Source: a virus
Taxonomy: Duplodnaviria > Caudoviricetes
Reading direction: 5' to 3' (one strand)
DNA: 64,000 nt
Virus record (IMG/VR): IMGVR_UViG_3300035661_000004
Shown: positions 5,940 to 59,988 of the stretch, piece after piece
Numbering within the stretch: the first letter of the stretch is position 1
How the letters are laid out: every line of letters starts with the position of its first letter
Position numbers and translations under genes: made by a program
The notes under the pieces: model-generated
What the model saw: only the letters and a program-made list of their open reading frames with translations
The model's database searches: none
What the model was told of the DNA's origin: nothing

Positions 5940-6287
5940 CTAATTGATTTCAATCTGGAAAGAGAATTGATCCTGCTTCCATTCAAGCAGTTTTACGATG
6001 GCACCCTCTGCCATGGCAGAGCTGCGTCGATACTTCATTGAGCCGTACTGCTCATCGCCTTTACGAGGGCCATAGCATACGACTACGATGCAGTCATCAA
6101 CGCGATCATAGATGGTGAGGATCAAGGTCTGAACAACCATTGGGTTTGAGTCCTCAAACTTGGCTTGGAAGCAAGCAACAGCCGGTATAGCCGATGCGAG
6201 CTTCATTTCATCATCAATCCCGATCTGCTGAAACTTCAAGAAGAGTTGACGGCACTCGCTCTTAAACCCACTCTTCATAGCCTGCAT
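5940..6287 (-). CDS. Small QQ-helix family protein
   Basis: 115 aa containing QLFLKFQQIGIDD. Start codon uncertain. Confidence 0.6.
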   Translation of the reverse strand: MQAMKSGFKSECRQLFLKFQQIGIDDEMKLASAIPAVACFQAKFEDSNPMVVQTLILTIYDRVDDCIVVVCYGPRKGDEQYGSMKYRRSSAMAEGAIVKLLEWKQDQFSFQIEIN

Positions 6288-6984
6288 CGATTAGCTCCTG
6301 CTCTAAGCGAAGAACACCTGCTCGATTGCGTAACGCAACCTTCAGGCGGGGGATGAAGAAGTCCTTTAGCTCCTCAACCTGCTTCTCATCAAGGATCTCA
6401 GGCGCGCAGGTGAATGCGAGACTTTGGAGCTGAGGGAAGAACGCCAGTCTAGGCAAGCATGTGGGCTTTTCAAGGTAGCCCAAGTTGATAGTTTCTGCCG
6501 CGCTGCCCGCAGCGTGCTTGGGGTCAACACGCTGGGCAAGCTGCTCATTGAGCACCAACGCAGAAACTCGACGAGGACAGCCGTTCCAGCTAGGGATAGC
6601 TGATGATGAGACGTTAATGAAGTCGACGACTTCAGGAAATCCCTCAAAGGAGATGATGTCAGGGTTGGTCCAGACAGCGCCGCTGACAATCTTGAAGTTG
6701 ACAGGGAGACGGTTGTAGGGCTTCAGGCGTTGAGGCAATGCCTGAGCGTTGACATTACCCGCTAATGAGACACGTCCATCATCACCAACTGTGTGATTGG
6801 TGTAGGTGAGGAAAAAGGGACTGCCGCTCTTAGCATCGAAGGCAAGCTGCTTCTCAACCCAAGCAGCAACTGCTGCTGGGTCTGAGAGGTTATCGACGGC
6901 CGCTATTAGCTCAACAGGCGGCGCATCATGCGAGGACGGAAGGGGCATCTGGTGGCGTTTCCCAGGGATCCCGAATGATATCAC
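6262..6984 (-). CDS. LRR-like phage protein with C-terminal QELIDAG helix
   Basis: SFEGFPEVVDFINVSSSAIPSWNGCPRRV is LRR-like, and the protein ends VLRLEQELIDAGYEEWV. The true start is probably near 6927 (MMRRL(F)ELIAA) with a lost T, since the listed start overlaps clpP by 59 nt. Confidence 0.65.
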   Translation of the reverse strand: MISFGIPGKRHQMPLPSSHDAPPVELIAAVDNLSDPAAVAAWVEKQLAFDAKSGSPFFLTYTNHTVGDDGRVSLAGNVNAQALPQRLKPYNRLPVNFKIVSGAVWTNPDIISFEGFPEVVDFINVSSSAIPSWNGCPRRVSALVLNEQLAQRVDPKHAAGSAAETINLGYLEKPTCLPRLAFFPQLQSLAFTCAPEILDEKQVEELKDFFIPRLKVALRNRAGVLRLEQELIDAGYEEWV

Positions 6985-7582
6985 ATAACCCTAGCTCCAA
7001 CGCCTCTTGTGCGGTGATCCAGCGGTCTGTGGGCGACAGTAGAATGTCCTTAACTTGCTGCTCTGTCATCTTGGTCCGCTTGACGAAGTGGTCAACGAAC
7101 CGCTTGTGCATGATGTCTTGAGTCTTGCGCATCGCGATGAAGTCATGGTACGTGCCCTCGACGCCTTCACTGAAGTGGTGCGTCATGATGAACGCGTTCC
7201 GTGACATGATCCGCTTACCTGGCGTGCCTGAGACAAACATCAAGGCGGCCATCGAGCAGATTGCACCGATGCCGACGGTCTGAATCTCCAAACGGCTTAC
7301 TTCCATGGCATCGATAGCCGCAAAGCCCGCATGCACGTCGCCGCCGTATGAGTTGATCAGCAGAGACAAGGTCGTGTCCGTGCTAAAGACGAAGTTGGAC
7401 TTGATCAAGAACTCGACCAGGTCTCGCGATGAATCTTGAGTCACGTCATCGAAGTACATGTATGTGGCGTAAGATGCCAGCGAGAACATGTCAATCGGCG
7501 ACACGCATGCCATCGAAGCCAGGTCCGAAGTAGCGAGCTCCTCGGCCGCTGCTTTCTTCATTCGACGTTGGGAGATTTTCAT
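6926..7582 (-). CDS. clpP: ClpP-like serine protease
   Basis: INSYGGDVHAGFAAIDAM, GAICSMAA (catalytic Ser), IMTHH (His), RWITAQEALELGLCD. Confidence 0.9.
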   Translation of the reverse strand: MKISQRRMKKAAAEELATSDLASMACVSPIDMFSLASYATYMYFDDVTQDSSRDLVEFLIKSNFVFSTDTTLSLLINSYGGDVHAGFAAIDAMEVSRLEIQTVGIGAICSMAALMFVSGTPGKRIMSRNAFIMTHHFSEGVEGTYHDFIAMRKTQDIMHKRFVDHFVKRTKMTEQQVKDILLSPTDRWITAQEALELGLCDIIRDPWETPPDAPSVLA

Positions 7583-7603
7583 TTAAGCTCGTTGATTGAT
7601 GGG

Positions 7604-8203
7604 TTACCTGTCAACCGAGAGGAAGATTGTATCATGGTCTCGCACCTTTGATCCGATCTTTCCGTGCTCGATTGTAATATGGTAGAGCAATGTCTCGTGC
7701 TCTACGCCCTTCTCAAGGGCGGTGAGGCAAAGCCTCACAGAGCGTGCGTCACGCTTGACGCAGAAGTCGGTTCGAGCCTGGCCCGACTTCTCATGGATGA
7801 ACACCTCGGACCACGTGTCGATGACGGTCTTGAACGTGTCAGCTGCAGCGTCAAACAGCTTTTCGCGCGCCACTGCACGGTCAGCGTCGCTCAGCAACAG
7901 CGGTAGCTTAACTGTTGGGCTTACCTGCTTGACTCGGCCTGTTTCAGCCGTAGTATAGAGCTTGGTAGAAACATCGCTGACAGCAATGTCAGTCAACGCT
8001 TTAGGGTTCTTGAAGACAGCATCCTCAGCTTGCGCCTTGTCTACAGAGAGCTTGAGCGACCGGGTGGCTTGCTTCCAGGCCCTTAGCAGCTCCCGCTGCA
8101 AGTCCTTGGTCACGTGATGCTTGACGTTATCGAAGCGATGAAGGGCAAGCACACTGCGCGCCTTCAAGCCTTCGGTGATGATAAAAGTTGCTAAGCCGCT
8201 CAC
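7604..8203 (-). CDS. Hypothetical late protein
   Basis: 199 aa with a GTG start 5 nt after TAAATA (8209-8214). Confidence 0.7.
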   Translation of the reverse strand: MSGLATFIITEGLKARSVLALHRFDNVKHHVTKDLQRELLRAWKQATRSLKLSVDKAQAEDAVFKNPKALTDIAVSDVSTKLYTTAETGRVKQVSPTVKLPLLLSDADRAVAREKLFDAAADTFKTVIDTWSEVFIHEKSGQARTDFCVKRDARSVRLCLTALEKGVEHETLLYHITIEHGKIGSKVRDHDTIFLSVDR

Positions 8204-8208
8204 TCAGC

Positions 8209-8214
8209 TATTTA
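8209..8214 (-). promoter_or_regulatory. Late promoter TAAATA
   Basis: TAAATA-gctga-GTG(8203). Confidence 0.65.
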
Positions 8215-8549
8215 TGCGGACCAGGAATGTTTGCTTCATTGATGTATCGAAGCACGTCCTCTGGCGTAGTTGAGGTGTACTCGACCGCGTAATCCTTGTC
8301 AACGTCGTCGACGTGAGCCATGGGTGCACCTTTACTTGGTACATGTGCCCATAGTGCACAAAGATCAGCGCCCACAGAGGCTTATTGTTGACAGTCTTGA
8401 GCTTGACATCACCTGATGTCCGTGAAGAAGGCATCTTCTATACAAAGGATCATAGTAAGGAGATCGCTATTCACACATGTGATGCTGCGTTGGGACATGC
8501 AAAGGACATGTAGCGACAACTCAGTTTTGCACAGATTCCTCCGCAATCC

Positions 8550-8555
8550 TAAATA
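8550..8555 (+). promoter_or_regulatory. Late promoter TAAATA
   Basis: TAAATA-gcctcat-ATG(8563). Confidence 0.65.
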
Positions 8556-8562
8556 GCCTCAT

Positions 8563-9192
8563 ATGACATATCGTTCGCCTTTCATCATCCAGCAAGGCTT
8601 CCTCACACCTGAAGAAGTAGCACGTATCGCCGACCAAACACGAGTCGTCGAGCCAGACAAGGACTCAGAAGGGCGGCCTCTACCTATGGCTCGTGCCCAT
8701 AAGGCGTCGGAGGACCTGATCTACAACAAGTTCAAGCCGCTGATTCCGCTCATCGAAGAGCACTACGACATCAAGCACAAGGCCACCGAGACCATTCAGT
8801 TCCAGCAGTTTCCGACCTCAAATGCGAAGCTGGCAGAAGCCCCGCACTGTGACAACGCGGTTTACAAGCGGAAGAAGTGGGCACGAGTTTCAGGCCGTGA
8901 CCTCTCCTGCATCATCTGGTTGAAAGACTACCAGGACACCCCTCCCTTCAACCTCAAGCAGCACGTCTACGGCGGGAAGCTTGAGTTCCCCGTCTATAAC
9001 TTTAGCTTCCAGCCTCAGGCTGGCACGCTTGTCATCTTCCCCTCTTGCGAGCGGTTCATCCAAGCCACGACCTCAGTGCTCGTCGGCGAGCTGCAGCTCG
9101 CAAAGTTCTACGTGCACTCGCAAGGCCTTTGGCTTTACAACCCGGCTAACTTCCCAGGCGACTTCAGAAGTTGGTTCAACGACGTGGTCTGA
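8563..9192 (+). CDS. 2OG-Fe(II) oxygenase-fold protein (P4H-like, atypical)
   Basis: HCD motif, RDLSCIIWL, YGGKLEFP, QAGTLVIFPS. The distal His position reads Gln (RFIQATTSV). Confidence 0.8.
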   Translation: MTYRSPFIIQQGFLTPEEVARIADQTRVVEPDKDSEGRPLPMARAHKASEDLIYNKFKPLIPLIEEHYDIKHKATETIQFQQFPTSNAKLAEAPHCDNAVYKRKKWARVSGRDLSCIIWLKDYQDTPPFNLKQHVYGGKLEFPVYNFSFQPQAGTLVIFPSCERFIQATTSVLVGELQLAKFYVHSQGLWLYNPANFPGDFRSWFNDVV

Positions 9193-9195
9193 CCT

Positions 9196-9368
9196 ATGCT
9201 AGGCTTCAACGTAACACCCGAAGGCGGTATATCCTTAAGCGGGGCTTCAACTTCTACCCAACAGCCGAGTGGGGTACTTCCCGCGGCTTCAGGTTCTCCC
9301 TGGGTAAGAAGCTCATCTTCGTGCGTTGGAGCGTCAAGCTAAGCAAGCTTATCGTGAGGTTCGGATGA
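9196..9368 (+). pseudogene. Small phage protein with one frameshift
   Basis: MLGFNVTPEGG in one frame joins ILKRGFNFYPTAEWGTSRGFRFSLGKKLIFVRWSVK in another, near 9228. Confidence 0.45.
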
Positions 9369-9787
9369 AGCTGGCTGAAATCTTATCCAAGGCTGACTTG
9401 CTAAAGGCTCAACAGGACTTCATCGACACGTTTCCGGATGGCTGGAGCTTCAAGATCACAAATGATGGTAAGCTTGAAGCATCGGTAGAGGATGATACCA
9501 CTCCGATGTATGCCACAGAGGATGAGATCGGGCTGCCTGATCAAAGCGTCAAGTCAGCACCTCGAGCTCGAGCTGAAATTGAGGCCGACTACAAGAAACG
9601 GAAGATTGACGTCAAGGTTACCGGCGGCAAGGTGGTGCGCGGATATCTTGAGGACGCGCAGCTTGAGTTCCCCTCTTATACTGCCGCATTCGAGTACTAC
9701 GTGCGAGACTATGCCTGGAACCAATACGGTAACTCATTCGTAGCCGATGATATCTGGGCTCGCATTAATGAGCTGACCGCATCATGA
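9365..9787 (+). CDS. QQ-helix family protein (tandem paralog 1)
   Basis: MKLAEILSKADLLKAQQDFIDTFPDGWSFK. The ATG at 9365 overlaps the preceding TGA. Confidence 0.75.
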   Translation: MKLAEILSKADLLKAQQDFIDTFPDGWSFKITNDGKLEASVEDDTTPMYATEDEIGLPDQSVKSAPRARAEIEADYKKRKIDVKVTGGKVVRGYLEDAQLEFPSYTAAFEYYVRDYAWNQYGNSFVADDIWARINELTAS

Positions 9788-10182
9788 AGCTCGACCGCCT
9801 GCTTGAAGCATCGCCTGACAAGAAGCGACTGCTCAAGATGCAGCAAGACTTCATCGACACGTTCCCTGACGACTGGGACTTCAAGCTCCAGAGCGACGGT
9901 GGCCTGAAGGTCACAAAGGCCAATGACGGTCCTTGCTACCAACTAGACAAGATCTTCTACAACCCTTACAACACGCGCATCTCCCAAGACGAGTGGGAGG
10001 AGGTCATTCGGAAACGTTTTGAAGAGGTCATGGAACAGCATGACCTTCCAGCCATCGATGTGACCTTTGAAAATGTCCACCCTGCCATCACTATCTGCGA
10101 GGCCAATGTTCAGTATAAGTCATATGCTGATGCATTTTATGTAGCAATTCTCGAAGAAGGTAGTTGGGACGCCTGGGGGTAA
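9784..10182 (+). CDS. QQ-helix family protein (tandem paralog 2), probably extends to 10267 past a G-run frameshift
   Basis: MKLDRLLEASPDKKRLLKMQQDFIDTFPDDWDFK. The shifted frame after the G5 run reads EPGDFGADNILEFIER, aligning with FVADDIWARINE of paralog 1. Confidence 0.7.
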   Translation: MKLDRLLEASPDKKRLLKMQQDFIDTFPDDWDFKLQSDGGLKVTKANDGPCYQLDKIFYNPYNTRISQDEWEEVIRKRFEEVMEQHDLPAIDVTFENVHPAITICEANVQYKSYADAFYVAILEEGSWDAWG

Positions 10183-22092: not shown

Positions 22093-22313
22093 TAGCGACG
22101 CGTTGCTGTGGTCAGTGACCTGATCTCGCCGTTGAGAGCTTTTGGTTCGATCAGCGCGTTGCCTAAGTCATACTCTTCAAGAATCATAGCAGGCACAACC
22201 TCAAAGACAAATGTGCCCCGATTGCCATTGCGCACGATGTTCTGCAGCTTGTAGCCCTTAACCTTCAGGTAAGCGGCGAGAATGATGTCTACTGTAGAGA
22301 AATTATTTTGCAT
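22092..22313 (-). CDS. Small conserved phage protein (DUF5659-like)
   Basis: FSTVDIILAAYLKVKGYKL...FVFE...IEPKALNGEIRSL pattern. Confidence 0.55.
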   Translation of the reverse strand: MQNNFSTVDIILAAYLKVKGYKLQNIVRNGNRGTFVFEVVPAMILEEYDLGNALIEPKALNGEIRSLTTATRR

Positions 22314-23002: not shown

Positions 23003-23527
23003 TCAGTAATCATTGATGAACTTGGCCGCATCCTCCGTTGACTTAAACGACTTGCGCTTGTCAGCATAGCGAATCACGATCTTGCCAAGCTCCCACGAGC
23101 ATTCAAGATGATCACCGAATTCGATGATCAAGGTAAGCGCCTTCAAGGTGATCAAGGCAGGCAAAGCTACCGAAGACGCAACCCTGAGCTTTAAGCTATA
23201 GCCTCTACCGTCAAAGGCTGATGCGAGTGAAGTCAAGACGGCAAGCTTAAGCATCCAGTCAACGTCGGCTTGGTCATTGACGCTGTTGGTGTAAAATTCA
23301 CCATGCTTGATCGGATCAGGCAGCTTGAGCGTGTTGTTGTGCACCGTAAACAAGAGGTACGTGTCAACGCACGGATGCTTGAGCTGGAGCCGCATCTCTT
23401 TATCATAGCGGCCATGCTTGATTTTTACATCGAGGTCCGGGACCTCATCGCTCTCGACGATTAGCTGTTGAAGCTTCAATGTCCACTTACGAATTTGCGT
23501 GTGGTCAATGGCTTCGGCTATTGTCAT
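23003..23527 (-). CDS. QQ-helix family protein
   Basis: IRKWTLKLQQLIVESD, ATGA-coupled to the upstream gene. Confidence 0.7.
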   Translation of the reverse strand: MTIAEAIDHTQIRKWTLKLQQLIVESDEVPDLDVKIKHGRYDKEMRLQLKHPCVDTYLLFTVHNNTLKLPDPIKHGEFYTNSVNDQADVDWMLKLAVLTSLASAFDGRGYSLKLRVASSVALPALITLKALTLIIEFGDHLECSWELGKIVIRYADKRKSFKSTEDAAKFINDY

Positions 23528-36059: not shown

Positions 36060-36425
36060 TCAGTCAAACTCCCACTGGTCAACTTCGGTCTCGATCCACT
36101 TAGCGATGGCATCCTCGTCATCACCATGGACTACCGCGGGCAGCATCGTTGCGCCGCGGTGCTCGCTCTCGTTGCTGATCGCCCACTTGACGCCATGCTC
36201 AGCCACTATATCATGGTTGATATAGTACATGTAGTTGTCATTCGGTTGCAGCACGACTGTGTTTGCAACGGCCATGTCGGTTGATTGCAATGCAGGCGCC
36301 CAGCCGATGTAGCACCCATCTTGAGAGTAGACCTTGAACTCATGGTCTCGCTCAGCGATGTCTTGCTGGAACATCAGCATGAGCTTTTTCATGCTGATGT
36401 TCTCTAGCAGCGGCTGAATCCTCAC
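36060..36425 (-). CDS. QQ-helix family protein
   Basis: The GTG at 36425 overlaps the upstream TGA: MRIQPLLENISMKKLMLMFQQDIAERD. Confidence 0.7.
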   Translation of the reverse strand: MRIQPLLENISMKKLMLMFQQDIAERDHEFKVYSQDGCYIGWAPALQSTDMAVANTVVLQPNDNYMYYINHDIVAEHGVKWAISNESEHRGATMLPAVVHGDDEDAIAKWIETEVDQWEFD

Positions 36426-38322: not shown

Positions 38323-38534
38323 AGAGTTCCAGTTGTCCACAAACCCCTCAGCCCAACCTTTTACGTCACCGTGGCTTGTATCGGTTGAATACAAGTCATC
38401 ACATTTGACAAAGCGAGCGCACTGAAGCCATGAACAATCATCAGCTTTACGTCAGTTCCGTCTTCGATGAAGGCTTGTTGTAAAGCCAAAGCGAGCTTAC
38501 GGGTCATTGACTCAAGGAGATGTTGGAGCTTCAT
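38320..38534 (-). CDS. QQ-helix family protein not in the ORF track (57 aa to TAA 38361, likely frameshifted tail to 38320)
   Basis: Hand translation: MKLQHLLESMTRKLALALQQAFIEDGTDVKL. ATGA-coupled to 38531..38872. Confidence 0.65.
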
Positions 38535-38872
38535 AGCTTGCTAATGCCTCGTTTGGCTAGCTGTTGATTGCGGTCCGCGAGCATTAGGTTTTCGCTGAGG
38601 GTCTTAAGAATGTCAAACACCTCAGCAAGCGTGTGAGTAAACGTACCCATTGGCGGAGCCTTAGACGTGCCGAGCACGAAGAGGTAAACCTTGGGGTCAT
38701 CCTGGTCTTTAGGCTTCAGCACTTCTACTAGCTTGAGACGACAGTCAAGCAGCTTGATAGTCGAGCTCGTTAGCTGAAGCGTGAGGTTAAGCAGCATCTT
38801 GACATCGAGGTAGTCAAGACGCTCAATGAGCTCCTGCTGTACCTCGAGCAAGTCACGCCTGGTCGCTGTCAT
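38531..38872 (-). CDS. QQ-helix family protein
   Basis: MTATRRDLLEVQQELIERLD. Confidence 0.7.
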   Translation of the reverse strand: MTATRRDLLEVQQELIERLDYLDVKMLLNLTLQLTSSTIKLLDCRLKLVEVLKPKDQDDPKVYLFVLGTSKAPPMGTFTHTLAEVFDILKTLSENLMLADRNQQLAKRGISKL

Positions 38873-42359: not shown

Positions 42360-43130
42360 TTATTTAGTCAGGTAGGCAATTGCGTTGTCAAGCGACTCTT
42401 GCCTGCCAGTCACGGCTTCATCTTCGATGAAGATTGGGCGCTTAGGGTAGTGCTTCGTCCAGTCACGCTTAAGCAGCTCCTCATACGTCTCGCCCCAGTG
42501 GAAGATCTCTACGTTAACAAGCTGCTCGACCTTGGAGCGAGGTTGACGACCGGGAACCATCAACGAGTCCTGGTCATCAATGATGATGACGACTTTCTGG
42601 TAGAGGGTAGAGAACCGATGACCATCATCCACAGGCGCAAGGACAAACACAAACCTGTCTGTTGTTGCGCCGTCTGCGGAAACACCTTTGGTCTTGATGA
42701 TGTTGCTGACAGTCTCGTAGTCAAGGTTCTCGAGGTCCTGCTGAAACTTCAAGATGCGCCGCTTTATTGGCACGACACCTTCATCCTCCTTGACCACGGG
42801 CGGCACGTAGGAGAGGCACTTAGGCAAGCGCTTGTACTTGTCCTTCAGCACAGCCACAAGCTCCTGCACGGTCCGGAACTTCTTCTCATGCTTCGAGTCA
42901 ACGAAGTAGGTGCTCGTGTCCTCCCAGCCAAACAGCGGCTTGTAGAGCTTGATCACGTCCCTGAGCCCATAGCCCTTGACCACGATGCAAAGCTTCGAGC
43001 GGTTTATAATTCCGGGTTTTGAGCTGGACTTGACTTCGGCCTCGAAGCCCTTTGCCTCGAGCTCCTTAGCGAAGCGAGACAGGGTTGTATGGGCGCTAGG
43101 GCCTGTATCGAGCAGTTCAAGTAGCTTCAT
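42360..43130 (-). CDS. Two-module QQ-helix family protein
   Basis: MKLLELLD start at 43130 and internal RRILKFQQDLENLDYE. Confidence 0.7.
   Translation of the reverse strand: MKLLELLDTGPSAHTTLSRFAKELEAKGFEAEVKSSSKPGIINRSKLCIVVKGYGLRDVIKLYKPLFGWEDTSTYFVDSKHEKKFRTVQELVAVLKDKYKRLPKCLSYVPPVVKEDEGVVPIKRRILKFQQDLENLDYETVSNIIKTKGVSADGATTDRFVFVLAPVDDGHRFSTLYQKVVIIIDDQDSLMVPGRQPRSKVEQLVNVEIFHWGETYEELLKRDWTKHYPKRPIFIEDEAVTGRQESLDNAIAYLTK
42361..42366 (-). promoter_or_regulatory. Late promoter TAAATA
   Basis: TAAATA-agccct-ATG(42354). Confidence 0.65.
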
Positions 43131-43795
43131 GCTGGCATCGCCCAACGCTTAAGATTTGTTCCTGGCTTCAGCGTGACGCTGTGGATAAAGTTGGTATGCC
43201 CGGCCACTTTCTTGTGCTTGTTGCCTGGATCATCGACATACATGGCAACGCCCATGCTCATATCGTCTGGGAAATGGTAAGCAGTCGTCCAATGGTTGTC
43301 CGACTCTTTTCTTGCGAGCAACAGGATACCGCCCTCAACATCAGTCTCTTGATGCTTAATGACGGTTGGCCCGTAGTTGTGCCGCATCACCCACTTTGAC
43401 GCTTGAAGCTTTGTCTCGTAGTCCTCATCAATGAGGTACTGTTGAAATTCTAGCGCTTCTGACCGGGCGCTCTCTTTAAGCTCTTGTTGCTGCTCCACCC
43501 AGTTAGCCAATGGCTGCATCGTCATAAACTCATTTACGTCATTGCAAAATCCACGGCCGCTAGCCGCATTCGTGTCCCAATAAAACATCGCGACGGTTAT
43601 CTTGTTGTCGATGCATAAGGCCATGTTAGACAGCGGCTGACCTACATCCTTATCGTTGACCTCTTTCCAATAGCCTTGCGTTGGGTCAATCTTGACGATT
43701 CGAATGTCACTCTCAGGCAAGAGCTCGACGAGTTCTTGCTGAGCCTTTAGGATGGCTGACCGATCAGTTTCTTCAAGCAGTGACTGCAGCTTCAT
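43127..43795 (-). CDS. Two-module QQ-helix family protein
   Basis: MKLQSLLEETDRSAILKAQQELVELLP and internal EALEFQQYLIDEDYE. Confidence 0.75.
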   Translation of the reverse strand: MKLQSLLEETDRSAILKAQQELVELLPESDIRIVKIDPTQGYWKEVNDKDVGQPLSNMALCIDNKITVAMFYWDTNAASGRGFCNDVNEFMTMQPLANWVEQQQELKESARSEALEFQQYLIDEDYETKLQASKWVMRHNYGPTVIKHQETDVEGGILLLARKESDNHWTTAYHFPDDMSMGVAMYVDDPGNKHKKVAGHTNFIHSVTLKPGTNLKRWAMPA

Positions 43796-44169
43796 CGCGA
43801 ACCCACCTCGATCCTCAAGTCCTTAGTGACATTGAACTCGATGTATTGGATCTTAGCCACGCAGATAAGCCGGTGGTTGTCCATGTCCGAGATGATGTCG
43901 CACTCTTGCAGCCGCACGCGGGGGTCACCGTTGATGACCTTCAGCACGTCCTCCTTCAAGATGTCCGCGGTGACGGTGTCGTTCGGCTCGAAGACCAGTA
44001 ACGGGATGCGCGTGCCGAAGTCAGGCTGCATGATTCGCTCACCCTTGACGGTGAACAACTCGTTGAAGAGGTCCTCTTGGATCAGCTCGACGTTGTAGAG
44101 GGTGAAGCCTTTGCCGACATTCTCGTAGCCTTTGGTGCTGAACCCACGGTAGAACTTGTACTGGCTCAT
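43792..44169 (-). CDS. gp25: Baseplate wedge subunit gp25-like
   Basis: LFTVKGERIMQPDFGTRIPLLVFEP...DPRV. Confidence 0.9.
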   Translation of the reverse strand: MSQYKFYRGFSTKGYENVGKGFTLYNVELIQEDLFNELFTVKGERIMQPDFGTRIPLLVFEPNDTVTADILKEDVLKVINGDPRVRLQECDIISDMDNHRLICVAKIQYIEFNVTKDLRIEVGSR

Positions 44170-44456
44170 AAGTTATGCCCATGTGCGTAGTCAGCAAACT
44201 CTTGGCCGCTGTAAAAATAGACCGAGTGGAAGCTTCGAGTACGGTCATCGATGACGTTTCTAACGATGCATTCTCGCTCGTTGTACTTGAAGGCGTATAG
44301 CAGCATAGGAGCCCGCTCATCCCTGCTCACAGAGAGCTTGAACTTGTTGCCACCTAGGTGCTTGACATCAACCTCCCACCCAAGGTCAATCAGCTCCTGC
44401 TGAAATTTCAGCACGAAGGTACGGCGTTCATCTTCAAAGATGGCTACGAGCTTCAT
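44166..44456 (-). CDS. QQ-helix family protein
   Basis: MKLVAIFEDERRTFVLKFQQELIDLGWEV. TAAATA 6 nt upstream. Confidence 0.75.
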   Translation of the reverse strand: MKLVAIFEDERRTFVLKFQQELIDLGWEVDVKHLGGNKFKLSVSRDERAPMLLYAFKYNERECIVRNVIDDRTRSFHSVYFYSGQEFADYAHGHNL

Positions 44457-48944: not shown

Positions 48945-49771
48945 CCTCTCCTGCTAGGCCGCTTCAGCGGCGTGTTGTGGTGATCAACTTCAAGCGGCTG
49001 GACCGGCTTACGAGTGATCAGCGTGTTGTTTGCTCGCGCGCCGACTACGAAGTCGCCGAACACGTCATGCTCGAACTGACCGTCATAGTCATCGCCGTAG
49101 CCTAAGCCGTCAACGCTGTCGGGATCATAGAACACATCAGTTGGAGCGAGCAGACGGCTATAGTAGTCATAGACCGGCAGGGTCGCGTTGCTCGCATGTG
49201 GGACATGCTGATCTACCAACGGTGGGGCGAGGTACAGCGATGCGTTTTCATGCTTTGAGAAGCGCAGCTTTGGCAGAATGACGTTTCCACGGGCGTCATA
49301 CTCTTGCCGTAGCGGCTTGCGAAGCTCGTCAAACTGCTGGCGATGCTGTCTGTGATCAACGCCGGCGCCGTGCTGGCGGAGGTCAATCTCAGAGACGAGC
49401 TTAACCGAACCCGAGGCGATGTCAGTCAACGCTACGGTGTGCCTATTAAGGTCAGGGTTGGAGCTTTCGAGAATGTCAAGGATGACAGAGACAGGCACGA
49501 CGCGGAAGCTAGGTAGCAGCCTGAAGACTACGTTCGTTTCAGACAGGCCATAACGGCCTTCGTCACGGTAGACGCCGATCAAGATTCGCTGGCCGAAGAG
49601 AGTCCACTGTCTCGCTCCAAGCTCCGGTGCAGGCTGCCAAAGCACCAAGCACTGGTAGTCGTCATGGTTGTCAGGCTCGTAGATCCAGCAACCTTTAGGT
49701 TGAGGCAGCTCCTCGCGAGGAGCGGACAGGTTGTCAAACTCCCCGCCTCCTCCTTCAGGGTCATAACTCAT
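48941..49771 (-). CDS. Hypothetical protein
   Basis: 276-aa ORF coupled to both neighbours. Confidence 0.7.
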   Translation of the reverse strand: MSYDPEGGGGEFDNLSAPREELPQPKGCWIYEPDNHDDYQCLVLWQPAPELGARQWTLFGQRILIGVYRDEGRYGLSETNVVFRLLPSFRVVPVSVILDILESSNPDLNRHTVALTDIASGSVKLVSEIDLRQHGAGVDHRQHRQQFDELRKPLRQEYDARGNVILPKLRFSKHENASLYLAPPLVDQHVPHASNATLPVYDYYSRLLAPTDVFYDPDSVDGLGYGDDYDGQFEHDVFGDFVVGARANNTLITRKPVQPLEVDHHNTPLKRPSRRG

Positions 49772-50460
49772 GCCGCGTCCTTCTCAACCTTCTGCTTCGC
49801 CGACTCTTCAGGCGGCGGCTTGATCATCTTGATCTTGCTAACCAGCAGGTCGAGGATGTCATCATTGACCTTAGGTCCGTAGAACTTCTTAAAGGCTGCA
49901 ACCTGCTTGGCTTCGTCCTCGCCGGCGCGCTGGAAAGCTTCACGGATAGTCGTGCCGGACTGGTTACCGTCTCGAGCATTGCTGATCACATAGTAGGCGC
50001 CTGGAGGATCGGACTCGCCGGTCTTCAAGCCGGCGGCTGCATGCGCAAAGGGCACCGGCTTGCCTGACTTGGTCGGGTACTGCTCGAAGAACTTTGACGA
50101 CTCATAGCGCTCTACGTCCTTATCGCCGGCTACCATGACCATCACAGTAGGAGCCTTGTAGAGCTCAAGCACCTCCTTCGGAGCGAAAGCAGGGTTCTTG
50201 CACTCGATGATCTTCTCAGGCGAGATGCCGAACAGCTGAACCATGATCTCGACCCGCTCCTCAAAGGTGAACGGCGAGATGTCACCGTTGCCTGGGTCAA
50301 AGTTGGTCTTGTTGGAGGTCGCGATCCACACGGCACCTTCGCCGAACTGCTTGCACAGCTCACGGTAGACCGAGTAGTGACCCTTGTGGAAAGGCTGGAA
50401 CCGGCCGCCGTAGATGACGGCTAAGAGCTTGCGCTCTTCGAGGAGGACTGAGAGCTTCAT
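49768..50460 (-). CDS. HIGH-family nucleotidyltransferase (cytidyltransferase/NMNAT-like)
   Basis: YGGRFQPFHKGH motif, VAGDKD, SGTTIR. N-terminal MKLSVLLEE. Confidence 0.85.
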   Translation of the reverse strand: MKLSVLLEERKLLAVIYGGRFQPFHKGHYSVYRELCKQFGEGAVWIATSNKTNFDPGNGDISPFTFEERVEIMVQLFGISPEKIIECKNPAFAPKEVLELYKAPTVMVMVAGDKDVERYESSKFFEQYPTKSGKPVPFAHAAAGLKTGESDPPGAYYVISNARDGNQSGTTIREAFQRAGEDEAKQVAAFKKFYGPKVNDDILDLLVSKIKMIKPPPEESAKQKVEKDAA

Positions 50461-50807
50461 TGCTTGTTAAACCGATCTATTACTTCGCCCATCGTTTTTG
50501 TAAAAGCATCATCTAAGATAGTATCGTCGGGGGCTTGCAAAAACTGCTTGAACGGTGACATGATGTACACCGAATCTGCTCTAATTGCATATGTGACACT
50601 ATTGTACAAAGCGGTGCTCATGACAGCGTCAACGGTAGCTTTGTCAATCAGCGTTAGCTGCTTAACAAAGGCTGGATTACGCCCCGCGGTCACAGGTGAG
50701 ATGCGGGTTGCAATGTCACCGTGTTCAATTAATGCTTGCTGGCAGCGTAGCACCCACCGCCTCAGCATTAAGTCGAGTGATGATTCAAAGAGAGCCGTCA
50801 ACTTCAT
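50457..50807 (-). CDS. QQ-helix family protein
   Basis: MKLTALFESSLDLMLRRWVLRCQQALIEHG. Confidence 0.75.
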   Translation of the reverse strand: MKLTALFESSLDLMLRRWVLRCQQALIEHGDIATRISPVTAGRNPAFVKQLTLIDKATVDAVMSTALYNSVTYAIRADSVYIMSPFKQFLQAPDDTILDDAFTKTMGEVIDRFNKQ

Positions 50808-51169
50808 TTTCCGTCTCGCTTTACAGGGCGCGCCAGCTCACAGTCCTTGATCACGTAGTCGATGAACTTAGCTTCGTTGTCGAATTGTCTGCAAGCTAGC
50901 ATGCAATGTCCATCCTTGACATCGATTTCACCTGACGTGTATTCAGCGACGTAGATTCCTGGGACATAGCCTTCGTCAACGTGCGGTGCTTGAGACTCAA
51001 CCCAAATCATGTATGCCTTGATGATCGACCCGCCTGGGACAGGCAGGTACCGCGCCCTCGGCCTTAGCTTCAAGTCGCGGTGCGGCAACGCTTCAACGAG
51101 CAGCTGTTGAAAGCGAAGCGCTGTCTGCCTGAGCGCGAGAGGCTGTTCCAAGAGGGCATAAATACGCAT
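50804..51169 (-). CDS. QQ-helix family protein
   Basis: MRIYALLEQPLALRQTALRFQQLLVEALP. TAAATA 4 nt upstream. Confidence 0.75.
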   Translation of the reverse strand: MRIYALLEQPLALRQTALRFQQLLVEALPHRDLKLRPRARYLPVPGGSIIKAYMIWVESQAPHVDEGYVPGIYVAEYTSGEIDVKDGHCMLACRQFDNEAKFIDYVIKDCELARPVKRDGK

Positions 51170-52652: not shown

Positions 52653-52667
52653 AAGCAATATATTCTC

Positions 52668-53771
52668 ATGCTTCAGAAAATCAGTGGACCTGACGCGACC
52701 AAGATTGCAATGTTCACGGACATTCACTGGGGCGTACGTTCAAATTCGGTTCAACATAACCAGGATAACCTAGACTATGTCGATTGGTTTATCAAATCAC
52801 TCCCAAGTGATATTTCTCACATCGCATTTCTAGGTGACTGGTTTGAAAATCGTTCAGCGATCAATGTGCAAACGCTGTCGATGTCCGCTGAAGGCTTGCA
52901 AAAGTTAGATAAACTTGGAATCCCGATCATGTTCATCACCGGGAACCATGATCTTTACCGACGCACGACTCGTGACATCCACTCGCTCAGCGTATTCAGC
53001 TCGGTTAGAAATGTCACCATTGTCGAAGATGCTATTAGCCTAAATGGCAAACAGCTATTCTTGCCGTATCTGTTTGACCATGAATTTCTCGCGCTTGCTG
53101 ATATTATCAATGCGCATGAAACCGTCTACGGTCATTTTGAGTTCAATGATTTTGTGTTGACTGGTCATAGCACAATCATGGAGCGCGGTCAGGACAGGCG
53201 GCTCGTTAGTAAACCGAAAAAGATCTTCTCAGGCCACTTCCATAAACGACAAGTCATCGACAATATTTGCTACATCGGTAACACATTTCCGACTAATTTC
53301 GGTGATGCAGGCGATGACGCTCGTGGCATGGCAGTTTATGATGTAGCCGCCGACAAAGTTGAATTCAAGGACTGGGAAGACTGCCCAAAGTACTTGAAGG
53401 TCAAGCTGGGTGACGTGATCGCCAACAAGTGGTCCCCGAAAGCAAAGACGCGCGTCAAGTGCGTGGTGGACATCGACATCAGCTACACAGAGGCGCAAGA
53501 GCTCCGCGAAGCGTTGATCGAGGCCCACAACCTGCGCGACTTGGTCCTCGAAGAGGACCGAGAGGCAAAGCAAGGCTTGGTCGAAGGCGACTCATCCAAG
53601 GTGACCGAAGTGCATGACCTCAAGTTTGACAGTGTTGACGAGCTCGTGACCTCCCAGCTTGAAGCCGCCATTGATGACGGTGCCGCCAAAGGCAAGTATG
53701 ACCTCAAGCTGTTGCTTGAGATCTACAAGAGCCTCAAGATCGAAACAACAGACAAGGACGCAACAGCATGA
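52668..53771 (+). CDS. gp47: Recombination nuclease (Mre11/SbcD, T4 gp47)
   Basis: FTDIHWG, FLGDWFE, ITGNHD, YGHFE, FSGHFH metallophosphoesterase motifs. Confidence 0.95.
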   Translation: MLQKISGPDATKIAMFTDIHWGVRSNSVQHNQDNLDYVDWFIKSLPSDISHIAFLGDWFENRSAINVQTLSMSAEGLQKLDKLGIPIMFITGNHDLYRRTTRDIHSLSVFSSVRNVTIVEDAISLNGKQLFLPYLFDHEFLALADIINAHETVYGHFEFNDFVLTGHSTIMERGQDRRLVSKPKKIFSGHFHKRQVIDNICYIGNTFPTNFGDAGDDARGMAVYDVAADKVEFKDWEDCPKYLKVKLGDVIANKWSPKAKTRVKCVVDIDISYTEAQELREALIEAHNLRDLVLEEDREAKQGLVEGDSSKVTEVHDLKFDSVDELVTSQLEAAIDDGAAKGKYDLKLLLEIYKSLKIETTDKDATA

Positions 53772-54543: not shown

Positions 54544-56427
54544 ATGAGCAAGGTTACGTTCGAGGACATGTGGTGGAAGAATTTCATGTCCTTCGGCAAC
54601 GTCATGACGACGGTCGATCTGACACGACCAGGTACCACCTTGATTGTCGGCGAGAACGCCGATGAAGGTGGCTCGTCCGGCGCCGGCAAGACCACGATCA
54701 TGAACGTGCTGTCCTACATCGTCTACGATAAGATCCCTCGTGATGATGTGAAGAAGGACAAGCTGATCAACAACATCAACAACGCCAAGACCATCACGAT
54801 GGAGGCGGGGCTCAACCTAACAGTGGGCGTTGACAAGTATAAGCTAGAGCGCCGGCGTGGGTATAACGCCGGCGTCGGGATGTGGAAGAACGGCGTCGAC
54901 ATCACGCCTGACTCGGTCGCCAACTTCAACCTGGCAGCTGAAGAGCTGATCGGCTTCTCCTACAACCTCTTTAGTCAGATCATCCTCTTCAACGGCAGCT
55001 CAACTCCTTTCCTGAGCCTGTCAGGACCCGAGCAGCGCTCGCTGATCGAGGAGCTCCTGCGGATCACCCTGCTGTCGCGCAAGGCTGAAGCTTTGAAGCT
55101 GCTCATGTCAGCGACCGAGAGCGAGCTGAAGATCAACTTAGCCTTGATCGAGCAGCAGAAGAAGCACGCCGAACGGCACCAGCAGATGATCGCCGCCGCA
55201 GAGAAGCGCGTCTCAGACTGGAACATCCAGCACGTCGCGGATATCCGAGCGCAGGAGGTCAAGCTTGAAACTCTGATGTCGGTTGACTTTGACGCCGAGG
55301 AGCAGATCCATGCTATGATCAAGGAGCTGCAAGAGAAGATCGCGCCTATCGACAGCGCAATTAGCCAGCATGCGGCTCTGATTCGGGCCGAGCGAGCTAA
55401 AACTTACCCAGGCAGCAGCAAGATCGCAGTCATGCGGCGCGACCTCGCCGCTTTGAAGAGCGAGAAGGCTAAGTATGAGGCTGAGCTGGGTCACCTCGCT
55501 GACGCCAAGTGCCCGTACTGCTTGCAAAAGTTCGAGGACGCTGCGAGTAAGATCGCTGAGCTGCAGGTCAATCTCGACTCCGCTACCATCGCTCTAGCTA
55601 CCTTGTCTAACGGGTTGCAGCTTGAAGTAGACTCTCAGGTCATGTTTGAAACCCAACGCGACAATGTCGCCGGCAACATGGAGCTGGACCTTGAAGCGAT
55701 GCGGGAGAGCAAGGTCAGCCTAGCTGGAGAGCTGGCTGACTACCAAGCCGTCCTGACCTACAAGACCTACAAGGACCACGTCAACGCCGCGTCGATGGCA
55801 GGCACGCTTGCTGACAAGATCGACAAGCTAAAGGATGAGGTCAATCCCCACCTTGACGCGCATGCGGCTTTGAAGAATGATCCAGGCGTACAGCTCGACA
55901 CCACCAAGGTTGACGAGCTGACCAAGCTGAAGGAGCACCAGAAGGTTCTCCACAAGCTGCTGACTGACAAGAACAGCTACATCCGCAAGGGCATCATCAG
56001 CAAGACGCTGCCGTTCCTCAACAAGCGGATCGCCTACTACACCGAGCGGTTGGGCCTGCCGCATGTTGTGCTCTTCCAGCCTGACATGTCTTGCGAGATC
56101 GCTAAGATGGGTCTAGAGCTTAGTCACGGAAACCTGTCCAACGGCGAGCAGAAGCGCTTGAACCTTGGCCTGTGCTTCGCCTTCCGGGACGCGCTAACTT
56201 ACCTGCACTCCAAGGTCAACGTCCTGCTAACCGACGAGGTCGACGGCGGCTCGCTCGATGAGCAAGCGGTGACAGCGATGATCTCGCTGCTGAAGCACAA
56301 AGCGTGGGACGACAAGATCGGCATCTTCATCATCTCGCACCGCCCCGAGTTTGACGGCAAGTGCGACCGGAACCTGATCGTCCGCAAGGAGTGCGGGTTC
56401 TCCTCGCTGATCAAGCAGGTTGACTAA
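54544..56427 (+). CDS. gp46: Recombination ATPase (Rad50/SbcC, T4 gp46)
   Basis: Walker A GSSGAGKTT, CPYC Zn hook, LSNGE signature, LLTDE Walker B, IISH. Confidence 0.95.
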   Translation: MSKVTFEDMWWKNFMSFGNVMTTVDLTRPGTTLIVGENADEGGSSGAGKTTIMNVLSYIVYDKIPRDDVKKDKLINNINNAKTITMEAGLNLTVGVDKYKLERRRGYNAGVGMWKNGVDITPDSVANFNLAAEELIGFSYNLFSQIILFNGSSTPFLSLSGPEQRSLIEELLRITLLSRKAEALKLLMSATESELKINLALIEQQKKHAERHQQMIAAAEKRVSDWNIQHVADIRAQEVKLETLMSVDFDAEEQIHAMIKELQEKIAPIDSAISQHAALIRAERAKTYPGSSKIAVMRRDLAALKSEKAKYEAELGHLADAKCPYCLQKFEDAASKIAELQVNLDSATIALATLSNGLQLEVDSQVMFETQRDNVAGNMELDLEAMRESKVSLAGELADYQAVLTYKTYKDHVNAASMAGTLADKIDKLKDEVNPHLDAHAALKNDPGVQLDTTKVDELTKLKEHQKVLHKLLTDKNSYIRKGIISKTLPFLNKRIAYYTERLGLPHVVLFQPDMSCEIAKMGLELSHGNLSNGEQKRLNLGLCFAFRDALTYLHSKVNVLLTDEVDGGSLDEQAVTAMISLLKHKAWDDKIGIFIISHRPEFDGKCDRNLIVRKECGFSSLIKQVD

Positions 56428-56689
56428 GGCTGCCAGGGTACGCGTCAACATGCTTGACGATCATGGCTGCAAACTGCGCTCGGGTGCTCATTCTCCAATA
56501 CTGATAGCCACCGACAGCTCGCCATGAGATGGTGGCGTCAGTTGTCGAGCTAACATACACATATGTGTTGTCAGGTAGCCTGACCTCCAAGCATGGCTCA
56601 ATCAAACCTCGCCAGAGCTTGACCTGAACACAGTCGGGTAGCTCAGCAACGAGCCATTGCTCAAGAGCAAACAGTTCGATCCTAGTCAT
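56411..56689 (-). CDS. Small hypothetical protein (degenerate QQ-helix)
   Basis: MTRIELFALEQWLVAELPD, 92 aa. Confidence 0.55.
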   Translation of the reverse strand: MTRIELFALEQWLVAELPDCVQVKLWRGLIEPCLEVRLPDNTYVYVSSTTDATISWRAVGGYQYWRMSTRAQFAAMIVKHVDAYPGSLSQPA

Positions 56690-56720
56690 CCTACGGATTG
56701 TACACCCTTGGGCCACCGTG

Positions 56721-57547: not shown

Positions 57548-57551
57548 CTGC

Positions 57552-57557
57552 TAAATA
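57552..57557 (+). promoter_or_regulatory. Late promoter TAAATA
   Basis: TAAATA-agctca-ATG(57564). Confidence 0.65.
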
Positions 57558-57563
57558 AGCTCA

Positions 57564-58124
57564 ATGACTGATACACAAATCAACGAGCTGAAGCCCGCTC
57601 GCAAGAAGGCCGTCAACGGTCGCGCTAAAGGCGCGGGCTTCGAGCTGACCATGGCGAAGCTCCTCTCAACTACCTTCGCGCCGCTGAACTTCAAGCGGAC
57701 ACAGTCGAGCGGCGCGATCGTCGGCGGCAGGAACTCCTGGCAAACCCAGCTCTACAGCCAGCACATGCTGTCGGCCTTTGTCGGCGACATCTTCCCAGTC
57801 AATGAGGAGGACATAGCCAAGGCAGAGGGCTGGAAGTTCCGATTCACCGTCGAGTGCAAGTTTTATCAGTCACAGGATGCGTTTGCGACATTGTTCAAAA
57901 ATCCTCAGCTATTGACATGGTGGGCACAAGCTAAGAGAGACGCTGCTAAGATCCCAGACCGCGAGCCATTGCTTATTTGCAAATTCAACTTCACAGATAC
58001 ATACGTTGGGTTTGAATGCGACCCTCCCAAAACTGTTTCTCGCGTTGTACAGATCGACGATGTGAAATTTTGTCTGATGAATGAAGCCTTAAAGGATCTT
58101 AATTGGTGGAAAGCAAAGCTGTAG
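57564..58124 (+). CDS. Holliday junction resolvase (Hjc-like PD-(D/E)xK)
   Basis: NGRAKGAGFELTMAKLL, RTQSSGA, GDI, VECKFY. Confidence 0.82.
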   Translation: MTDTQINELKPARKKAVNGRAKGAGFELTMAKLLSTTFAPLNFKRTQSSGAIVGGRNSWQTQLYSQHMLSAFVGDIFPVNEEDIAKAEGWKFRFTVECKFYQSQDAFATLFKNPQLLTWWAQAKRDAAKIPDREPLLICKFNFTDTYVGFECDPPKTVSRVVQIDDVKFCLMNEALKDLNWWKAKL

Positions 58125-58518: not shown

Positions 58519-58673
58519 CCACCCGAGGACCTGCTGATATACTATACACGAGATGAATACGCTGGCCGTTGGAATTCTCATCTCTTCCTGCGGTTCCTCG
58601 TCGGGCGCCGCATCATCCTCATGATCGTTGATGCATACGACCCCCGCAATCACAAACTACCTGGACAAACGAT

Positions 58674-59033
58674 ATGGGCCACAAGGCAGCCAAGAAGGCG
58701 CGCAAGCTCCTCAATACCCTCCAAGCTCAAACCGGCGATAAGGACAGCTGGACGGAGCACGTCTATGTCGAGAACGAGAATCGGCGGAAGAAGCAGCTCG
58801 TTGAGCTGAAGACCGGCGAGGAGAAGGAGATCACCGTCTCCCTGGGTCAGCTGACCCTTAAGCCTGGCTCCGGACGCGCGGTCTACAAGGTCATCAAGCG
58901 CGCGATGCAGGGCAAGGCCTCAGGCGTCAACAGCAAGCCGTTGACCAACTTCCCAGTCGCGACCGCTGGCTTGCCTGTACAGCAGAAGCTGCTGCCCGTC
59001 GCCGAACCCACCTTCATCGAAACCGAAGAGTGA
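58674..59033 (+). CDS. Hypothetical protein
   Basis: 119-aa ORF with phage-typical codon usage. Confidence 0.65.
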   Translation: MGHKAAKKARKLLNTLQAQTGDKDSWTEHVYVENENRRKKQLVELKTGEEKEITVSLGQLTLKPGSGRAVYKVIKRAMQGKASGVNSKPLTNFPVATAGLPVQQKLLPVAEPTFIETEE

Positions 59034-59401
59034 TCATCGACTTAGAGCGGAAAGACGCTCTAGCCCAGGCGATTGTAATGGCTCACGACAATGAGATCAT
59101 TGACATCGCCTGCCGCACGCTTGACACGTCGTACAAGCAAGTCAGCCATGTTTGGGTTGGCCCGAAACGAGCTCTCCACATGACGCTCTCGCTCATTGTA
59201 GGCTCTAAGGCCCGCATCGAGCATGAGTACATCATCACGGGTGTGACAGGCGTCAAGCCTGGCTACAAATACTGCATGCTACGTCGCCATGTCGGCGACT
59301 ACACGTCCACGCCACTTAAAGAGGCCTTTGAAGCATTTGCCTACGCGCGAGTGAAGCAGGGCCTTTGGCAAACCGAGTCCGCAATCAGCGGCTCTTCATA
59401 A
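59030..59401 (+). CDS. Hypothetical protein
   Basis: 123 aa, GTGA-coupled to the upstream gene. Confidence 0.65.
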   Translation: MIIDLERKDALAQAIVMAHDNEIIDIACRTLDTSYKQVSHVWVGPKRALHMTLSLIVGSKARIEHEYIITGVTGVKPGYKYCMLRRHVGDYTSTPLKEAFEAFAYARVKQGLWQTESAISGSS

Positions 59402-59416
59402 AGCTCATAATGGTAA

Positions 59417-59714
59417 GGTCCCGAAGCACCTAGTATGACGCCGCTCTTTGGTTGAACTTCAGAAAAGAGGAGCGGGCTGAGGCGTCCCAGATTCGCCTTT
59501 CCCTGTGTTAGAGGCCCGGGGATGGAGCATGTACGAGCATGCCCGATAAACAGCTATGCCTAAGTCATCTTTGCAGATAGCGGTACTCCGCGGCTGATAA
59601 CTCGTTGCAAGGCAGGAGGGTGATGGCTCCTGACCAACTGTAACACTCGTCATGGAATCCCAACGGTTAAGGGGTGGGAACCATGGGTGTGCCTGCTGTC
59701 TACATCCCCCGGAC
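59417..59714 (-). ncRNA. Candidate structured non-coding RNA
   Basis: TAAATA at 59720-59725, followed by about 300 nt with no convincing ORF and many stems, including GCAA and cUUCGg tetraloops on the minus strand. Confidence 0.45.
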
Positions 59715-59744
59715 GGTACTATTTATGGGCGCACAAACCTGCAT

Positions 59745-59988
59745 CTAAATGCAATAGGACACATGGCTTGGCAACCGCCAACACCTTCGTTCTAAGCATA
59801 TGATGAGGTATGGGCCTCCTAAGCCTTCCGTCAGCTGTTGCTTAGTACTGGAGGTCGGGATCACGTCGTTTGAGCTCCACGTGACCTTGCCCGCATTGGT
59901 GTGAAGGTAGAGCTGCCCGTTCTTCTGGCTCAGCTTGATGTCAGTAGGTGCTGTTGCAGCTTAAGGAGCTTTTGCGCTCGGCGCTCAT
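59745..59988 (-). pseudogene. Frameshifted QQ-helix family protein, apparently fused to the HNH ORF
   Basis: MSAERK / KLLKLQQHLL / DIKLSQKNGQLYLHTNAGKVTWSSNDVIP in successive frames. The 3' end is uncertain. Confidence 0.45.

Follow-up and report, generated by a model that had tools for sequence, protein, structure and literature searches.

The stretch of viral DNA considered here (IMG/VR record IMGVR_UViG_3300035661_000004, 64,000 nt; hereafter the window) comes from an uncultured jumbo myovirus, a giant T4-like phage, and contains 12 genes, with 14 domain copies among them, for small proteins sharing the motif L-[KR]-x-QQ-x-[LF]-[IV]-[DE]. The best explanation for this QQ family is a lineage-specific set of paralogous small late proteins on an undescribed domain, with the glutamine pair in its first helix; the domain family is the new element, with no Pfam, PHROG or NCBIfam match and no fold match above noise. 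Ahead of the helix there is commonly an 8-residue leader, which is also found on proteins outside the family. The members may be cargo that is packaged in the phage head and trimmed by a protease, with the leader and not the helix as the loading signal; by analogy with phage T4, this reading is given a probability of roughly 0.45.

Evidence for a protein family

Motifs were counted in a set of 82 window proteins. A loose form (L..QQ..[IVA][DE]) occurs 12 times, against a mean of 0.06 and a maximum of 2 in residue shuffles, and a strict form (L[KR].QQ.[LFI][IV][DE]) seven times, against 0.003. Eleven of the 12 loose occurrences are within the first 45 residues of the protein, and in each member the motif starts 9–20 residues from the N-terminus. 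A 45-column hidden Markov model (HMM) of the N-terminal region, run against all stop-to-stop open reading frames (ORFs) of the window, recovered 11 ORFs with E values of 1e-11 to 1e-19, and also the second domain of 43127-43795 (E 0.002–0.003); the second domain of 42360-43130 is borderline, with a best-domain E of 0.012 to 0.13 across three HMMs. The QQ pair is invariant in every family alignment. The copies differ freely in their synonymous codons and share no conserved upstream DNA, so the constraint is at the protein level; a DNA-level repeat or promoter element as the source of the motif was dropped on the same grounds.

Beyond the N-terminal module the proteins have little in common. With the module removed, an all-versus-all comparison of 35 members (window copies, related contigs and foreign metagenomic proteins) left only the tandem pair 9365/9784 still matching (E 8e-4). 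Eight of the 12 genes adjoin another member, two are tandem fusions, and start and stop codons overlap as ATGA or GTGA at 50807, 50460, 44456, 44169, 43795, 43130, 38534, 36425, 23527, and 9787.

A preliminary description of this DNA, made from the letters alone, had listed about 15 sites and proposed comparison with a shuffled proteome as a check. The motif proved to be far above the shuffles (12 versus 0.06) and the family stood, as 12 genes, while two of the listed sites (6262-6984 and 59930-60400) are not members, and the position numbers given were those of gene ends, not of motifs. Its remark that the sequence after the helix is highly divergent agrees with the single matching pair among 35 members, and the translational coupling it described is seen in the overlaps at ten member junctions. 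That the QQ family and its leader are real is close to certain.

The leader as a separate module

Alignment of the 35 N-termini gives three segments: a leader, with the consensus M-[KR]-L-x-x-L-L-E; a linker whose length differs between members; and the QQ helix block, whose consensus R-x-x-L-L-K-L-Q-Q-x-L-I-D leads into an acidic turn and then a D-V-K-L strand. Insertions and deletions fall between leader and helix. The leader pattern opens eight of the 82 window proteins (seven family members and one enzyme), and is found at none of 19,498 internal positions and not at all in shuffles. Position 8 is Glu in 28 of the 35 family N-termini, and position 7 is L, I, or F in 33.

Leader and helix also occur apart. 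The leader is present without a QQ domain on an NMNAT-like enzyme (49768-50460), on a protein of 79 amino acids (aa) in L007, a contig of a related phage, and on two proteins beginning MTLLQDLLE in L023; an FLAE-type leader is found on a 382-aa protein in L023 (7116-8264) and on a 518-aa metagenomic protein, P0019; and some QQ proteins have no leader. In the NMNAT-like enzyme the leader is an add-on, since the Pfam domain CTP_transf_like begins at residue 16 (NCBIfam domain hits at residues 9–16) and phage homologues align from residue 9 by tblastn; the orthologue in L012, from a second relative, keeps it as MKISTLLE. The leader is a separate, portable module. The gene for the enzyme (minus strand) is translationally coupled to two QQ genes; if packaged, the protein could, speculatively, be an injected NAD-related enzyme.

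Three leaderless copies, 38531-38872 (minus strand), L007:13868-14242, and L007:14239-14619, have Glu in place of the helix Lys (LLEVQQ, LLELQQ), creating L-L-E within the helix. T4-like leaders without a QQ helix were noticed on a small protein at 5521-5907 (minus strand), which starts MKLNNLYQGKRLIAE, and at L011:9668-9943 (MKFKDFGEIFE), between the gp25 and wedge genes of a relative with 57% wedge identity. In the genomes of the cultured phages RsoM2USA, XacN1, PA5oct, and CBB, a leader-like DNA pattern gave one to three matches per genome, near the control level, so that these offer no cultured proxy with a virion proteome; one XacN1 match that was inspected lies inside a topoisomerase gene.

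Members and non-members in the window

The family members, with E values from the HMM searches, are as follows:

5940..6287, minus strand: QQ member, 115 aa; begins MQAMKSGF, without a canonical leader; helix LKFQQIGID (residues 17–25); E 5e-11 to 6e-10
9365..9787, plus strand: QQ member, 140 aa; leader variant MKLAEILS, no Glu at position 8; E 1e-13 to 1e-14; tandem paralogue of 9784..10182
9784..10182, plus strand: QQ member, 132 aa; leader MKLDRLLE; E 4e-18 to 8e-20; next gene endolysin-like, with Glyco_hydro_108 and PG_binding_3 domains (Pfam)
23003..23527, minus strand: QQ member, 174 aa; degenerate leader MTIAEAID; E 4e-16 to 9e-11; start overlaps the stop of 23524-24093
36060..36425, minus strand: QQ member, 121 aa; leader MRIQPLLE; E 2e-17; GTG start overlaps the TGA of an upstream 629-aa gene (GTGA)
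38361..38534, minus strand: truncated member, 57 aa; leader MKLQHLLE and QQ helix, little else; E 1e-19
38531..38872, minus strand: QQ member, 113 aa; no leader; L-L-E inside the helix (DLLEVQQ); E 3e-12
42360..43130, minus strand: two-domain protein, 256 aa; leader variant MKLLELLD; second domain (ILKFQQDLEN) borderline by HMM
43127..43795, minus strand: two-domain member, 222 aa; leader MKLQSLLE; helices at 16 and 115; domain E 1.6e-14 and 0.003; L-K-E upstream of the second helix
44166..44456, minus strand: QQ member, 96 aa; leader MKLVAIFE; E 1e-19; copy modelled with AlphaFold2; flanked by the baseplate hub gene and the gp25-like gene; TAAATA 12 nt upstream of the ATG
50457..50807, minus strand: QQ member, 116 aa; leader MKLTALFE; E 5e-12
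50804..51169, minus strand: QQ member, 121 aa; leader MRIYALLE; E 1.6e-16; TAAATA 10 nt before the ATG; heads a co-directional, overlapping run of late-type genes

Three further genes are not members:

49768..50460, minus strand: NMNAT-like enzyme; leader MKLSVLLE as an N-terminal extension
6262..6984, minus strand: 240-aa ORF; last 20 residues resemble the helix (VLRLEQELID); E 0.3–1.1
59930..60400, minus strand: HNH endonuclease (Pfam HNH_5, 2e-7); chance C-terminal LLKLQQHLL; E 0.8–1.6

Isoelectric points (pI) of the members range from 4.5 to 8.3, with mixed charge. The 57-aa copy at 38361..38534 has no HMM match in the same interval of L002 (a contig of a related phage, with about 90% identity in core proteins) and is not called as a gene in L005 or L006; it may be either a decaying copy or a mini-protein. 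At the position of 42360..43130, the gene in L010/L012, the second relative (wedge identity of L012 80–86%), opens with leader and QQ helix.

The end of 6262-6984 overlaps the start of 5940-6287 by 26 nt (6262-6287) in another frame, and its QQ-like tail could be the remnant of a fused or frameshifted copy. The ORF at 56411-56716 (MTRIELFALEQWLVAELPD...) was considered as a further member and rejected, neither HMM having reached it; on the minus strand, from an internal Met, it reads MTRIELFALEQWLVAELPDCVQVKL and resembles the family with EQ for QQ.

Domain structure

An AlphaFold2 model of the 96-aa copy at 44166..44456, based on an 18-sequence alignment, has a mean predicted local distance difference test score (pLDDT) of 80. 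Residues 1–7 score below 50 and the QQ helix (residues 10–24) 88–91; five strands and a C-terminal helix follow, and the elements other than the helix score about 80. A second model, for a 121-aa copy, is too poor for fold comparison (pLDDT 55), with the same element order at both ends. Several members have a strand and then a C-terminal helix, a hint that one predicted fold is shared across the family. Foldseek searches with the 96-aa model against PDB, BFVD, and AFDB clusters gave best E values of 0.09–0.9, none above noise, and a wide structural alignment of the modelled domain to the PDB gave a best Z of 6.6, inside the stated noise range. An Atlas model had a template modelling (TM) score of 0.69 to an HGTP_anticodon-like fragment with a different strand order, and Atlas feature search scores were at most 0.80. 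Pfam (E up to 1), PHROG, and NCBIfam searches with the members returned chance-level matches only.

The helix recurs in the second domain of the tandem-domain proteins, and its conserved positions L, QQ, and I (i, i+3, i+4, i+7) share one face. It is most likely a conserved core or partner-binding face of the domain, and not a loading signal. Pairing of two domains through the helix would be compatible with the one-face conservation, the adjacent genes, and the tandem fusions; tandem duplication alone would be equally so. A clamp-binding, PIP-box-like reading of QQxLID was set aside, the aromatic positions being unconserved by eye. An [LI]xE motif is found within 22 residues upstream of seven of nine internal QQ helices (background 19%, p 2e-4).

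The QQ domain can also be fused to larger proteins: P0019 has two QQ domains at its C-terminal end. The N-terminal region of P0019, with GS...DxD, looks like a Pol-beta-type nucleotidyltransferase by eye only; residues 1–290 had no match among PDB sequences.

Genome context, distribution, and divergence

By PHROG annotation the window includes a baseplate/tail module, in which a hub and a collagen-like fibre accompany a gp6-like wedge protein of 1159 aa and a virion protein of 2843 aa. By Pfam there is a gp53-like protein among the window proteins, and a gp25-like one among the contig's called genes. Judged by the wedge protein, the closest cultured relative is Ralstonia phage RsoM2USA (43% identity), followed by XacN1, Xoo-sp13, CBB, and PA5oct, and the lineage belongs with the T4-like RsoM2USA/XacN1/PA5oct group. 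Megablast of 15 kb of the window against cultured phages gave no nucleotide match, and an exact 40-mer search in IMG/VR gave zero matches. The DNA is also present in sediment and microbial-mat metagenomes, possibly the source samples; the datasets listed as carrying the region are all DNA datasets from these two habitats, and none is an RNA dataset.

A profile search of 1.84 billion representative proteins gave 34 matches (E up to 1e-3). Repetitive sequences unrelated to the family account for three of them; about 25 count as foreign members of the family, each an unnamed metagenomic protein, and several have two domains. The HMM found no members in the complete genomes of RsoM2USA, XacN1, PA5oct, and CBB, and recovered both copies in a positive-control record; among cultured phages, tblastn with a two-domain member as query returned a chance match only. 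In the same four genomes the gp25-like, gp6-like wedge, and giant-protein genes follow one another without intervening genes, as expected from the earlier suggestion that the QQ genes are inserted between virion genes. Elsewhere, copies adjoin the endolysin-like gene, follow the capsid gene, or belong to the replication module.

Copies come and go between close relatives. L002 keeps copies at the same places, 40–75% identical (75% for 36060..36425), against 87–94% for the majority of conserved neighbours; L010/L012 has two copies between gp25 and wedge genes, and lacks copies in the hub–gp25 interval and ahead of the enzyme. Nonsynonymous divergence (dN) between copies and their L002 orthologues is 0.13–0.58, against 0.03–0.09 for core structural neighbours, and the ratio to synonymous divergence (dN/dS) is 0.11–0.37; dS is near saturation, so that the ratios are rough. 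The fastest-evolving copy is 38531..38872 (40% identity, dN 0.58, dN/dS 0.37). By these comparisons the members have diverged 2–20 times as much as neighbouring core genes at the amino acid level, still under purifying selection.

No HNH, GIY-YIG, or NUMOD motifs were detected in family members by Pfam, which sets them apart from free-standing homing endonucleases, the other type of gene situated between conserved genes in this region. L002 does have an extra NUMOD3 homing endonuclease (8371-9021), absent at the same place in the window. Within the window, homing-endonuclease-type candidates are 59930-60400 (HNH, by Pfam), 51861-52727, 2419-3099, 22303-22950, and 4283-4645; the L005 counterpart of 51861-52727 has a faint NUMOD3 record only, and HNH-like "ERHHIVP" and GIY-YIG-like N-termini were recognized by eye only.

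TAAATA is found 10–13 nt before the ATG of 44166-44456, 50804-51169, and several virion-module genes, a spacing that points to late expression of the family genes. Examples of the sites are 44468-44463, 51179-51174, and the 38366-38361 region, and the late-type genes with TAAATA at this distance upstream include 1169-2362, 7604-8203, 8563-9192, 22303-22950, 23524-24093, 36422-38311, 38875-42354, 44166-44456, 50804-51169, and 57564-58124. The arrangement suggests late mRNAs with very short or absent 5′ leaders.

The head module and known packaging systems

The head genes lie just outside the window. L014, a contig with the window's 138-aa protein letter for letter, runs on into a T4-type head module and carries the portal gene and the N-terminus of the protease; the head module is shown in full in L007, where Portal_T4, a Peptidase_S77 protease, and a Gp23 capsid protein are annotated and a scaffold-like protein is also encoded. 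The protease matches T4 gp21 (phmmer, E 1e-25) and starts VLIE, corresponding to LLIE in T4 gp21. The scaffold-like protein, of 303 aa, opens with KKLLES and has 5.3 [LI]xE motifs per 100 aa, and the capsid protein has LLE19, ALE34, and LLE42 ahead of the part that aligns with mature gp23. The gene order in L014 is portal, a 190-aa member (MKLSNLLE), a 168-aa member (MKLTNLLE), and protease; in T4 it is 20-67-68-21, which puts the two members in the gp67/gp68 slot. Phmmer comparison of members with T4 gp67, gp68, and gp22 gave E above 0.1, with no similarity. Co-folding of P0014, the 190-aa member, with the scaffold-like protein scored 0.00 in a run without controls, a value that counts neither for nor against an interaction.

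In T4, gp21 cuts after L/I-x-E (PMC9026906, PMC3012670), and an N-terminal propeptide of 10–19 residues ending in this motif is enough to bring internal proteins, as well as foreign ones, into the head (PMC9026906; also PMC3012670, PMC5694885); the internal proteins are diverse, the targeting sequence alone being conserved (PMC9026906, PMC3012670). N-termini in the T4 record include MKTYQEFIAE (IPII and IPIII), MAKINELLRE (gp24), and MLKEQLIAE (gp22). By analogy, the leader described here fits such a capsid-targeting propeptide with an L/I-x-E cut site for a gp21-type protease. As with IPI, IPII, IPIII, and Alt of T4, which depend on a capsid-targeting sequence (CTS) and gp21, a short leader ending in L/I-x-E precedes unrelated, fast-diverging small proteins; as in T4, there are a portal, an S77 protease, a scaffold-like protein, and a gp23-like capsid protein, and the candidate cargo genes are scattered outside the head module; and as with the CTS on Alt, the leader is also on an enzyme. 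Unlike the T4 case, the leader has eight residues (MKLxxLLE) instead of 10–19, about 30 residues of QQ helix and first strand are conserved in addition and recur in tandem domains, the copies are far more numerous (12 in the window and two just beyond), the members are of mixed charge where T4 internal proteins are basic, and packaging and cleavage are predictions. The members also have no sequence similarity to the T4 internal proteins: Pfam, PHROG, and NCBIfam gave no homology to IPI, IPII, or IPIII, only the leader logic being alike. Since the T4 internal proteins are not homologous to each other, this bears on ancestry and not on mechanism.

Two other comparisons are useful. Families A and B of the phiKZ-like phage SPN3US and the phiKZ inner-body proteins (pfam12699) are head or ejection paralogues with variable copy number, up to 20, cut after Glu by a gp21-related protease, with propeptides mostly longer than 100 residues (PMC5694885). 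The QQ family resembles these as an expanded family whose copy number varies between related giant phages; it differs in its T4-like lineage and 8-residue leader, and its virion location is putative, whereas that of the phiKZ-side proteins is proven. The members had no match to pfam12699 in the Pfam scan (E up to 1), above chance level. The T4 core proteins gp67 and gp68 are comparable in that two members lie between portal and protease and in having L-x-E N-termini (MEGLIE in gp67); unlike them, the members have bodies that are not enriched in cleavage motifs and most copies are elsewhere in the genome.

Possible functions

If the QQ proteins are packaged cargo, the leader would act like the T4 capsid-targeting propeptide and bring each protein into the prohead core. 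There the S77 (gp21-type) protease would cut after L-x-E and release the leader. Once trimmed, the QQ domains would be retained in the head until they passed into the cell along with the DNA, and the fast-diverging body of each copy could act on a different host target. In the tandem-domain copies, the L-x-E before each internal helix might let the protease part the domains.

Several observations weigh against this. The L-x-E before internal domains is equally well explained as a short structural helix of the domain, and [LI]xE occurs in the domain bodies at background frequency (0.87 per 100 aa), neither depleted nor enriched. Three or four of the 12 copies depart from the expected N-terminus (5940, 23003, and 38531 have no proper leader, and 9365 has no Glu at position 8), the pI values are 4.5–8.3 whereas T4 internal proteins are basic, and most copies sit in the tail/baseplate module instead of among the head genes. 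A fold common to all members is at best suggested by the one confident model, the second being poor (pLDDT 55). The family is absent from the cultured relatives RsoM2USA, XacN1, PA5oct, and CBB, hence there is no virion proteome to consult. A more elaborate version treats the QQ domain as a dedicated chassis for the cargo of a polymorphic effector system: the cleavable leader, QQ helix, and first strand would together serve for docking in the prohead core or for pairing domains through the Gln face, the hypervariable bodies would neutralise different host defences on injection, and the leader would co-package enzymes such as the NMNAT-like protein, perhaps against NAD-depleting immunity. This version is doubtful.

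The preliminary description had taken the helix itself to be a docking or packaging signal, with unrelated cargo behind it. A shared N-terminal module on diversifying late proteins does fit that proposal, and the helix and next strand are the sole parts conserved family-wide, with QQ invariant and only one pair of 35 members matching without them. The choice of the helix as signal fits poorly, because it is the leader that unrelated proteins have in common, while the helix also turns up in second domains, deep inside the protein, where a signal meant for the N-terminus would serve no purpose. Its pLDDT of 88–91 within a compact model whose other elements score about 80, and the strand and C-terminal helix of several members, which hint at one fold, also argue against a tag on unrelated cargo, and this explanation is rather improbable. 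Somewhat easier to entertain, if still unlikely, is that these are late cytoplasmic accessory proteins that are never packaged, such as defence inhibitors or host-takeover factors, with the leader as a structural or expression feature. Their apparent dispensability (RsoM2USA, XacN1, PA5oct, and CBB do without them), fast evolution, gain and loss of copies, and mixed charge are all in keeping with this, as is the one member in the replication module, on the strand opposite to its neighbours; left unexplained are the same 8-residue protease-motif leader on unrelated proteins, its likeness to the N-terminus of the scaffold-like protein, and the two members between portal and protease.

That likeness and the gp67/gp68 position would also suit prohead-core scaffold-accessory proteins like gp67 and gp68 themselves, which would contribute to building the large head before being degraded and expelled instead of delivered. 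This has low odds, given the lack of similarity to T4 gp67, gp68, and gp22, bodies with 0.87 [LI]xE per 100 aa against 5.3 in the scaffold-like protein, and the presence of at least 12 rapidly diverging, dispensable copies, which suit morphogenesis poorly. A role as tail or baseplate accessory subunits, or as assembly chaperones for the neighbouring structural genes, is suggested by the translationally coupled members among the hub, gp25-like, wedge, fibre-like, and giant-protein genes. It is very improbable: in cultured relatives, whose baseplate genes are homologous, these positions are empty; other members are in head, lysis, and replication modules; and tail assembly is not known to involve a leader ending in a prohead-protease motif.

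Implications

If the reading as leader-loaded, protease-trimmed head cargo is correct, this phage lineage would hold in its capsid a protein repertoire of unusual size and rapid turnover, ready to act as the DNA enters the cell, with all of this cargo on one undescribed domain and loaded by a simple 8-residue tag. The T4 internal-protein idea would be extended to a domain family with at least 14 verified copies in about 70 kb. Alongside the short T4 tag exploited for loading foreign proteins, the leader would be the second of its kind found in nature, and the QQ proteins would offer a defined panel of candidate anti-defence effectors for screening.

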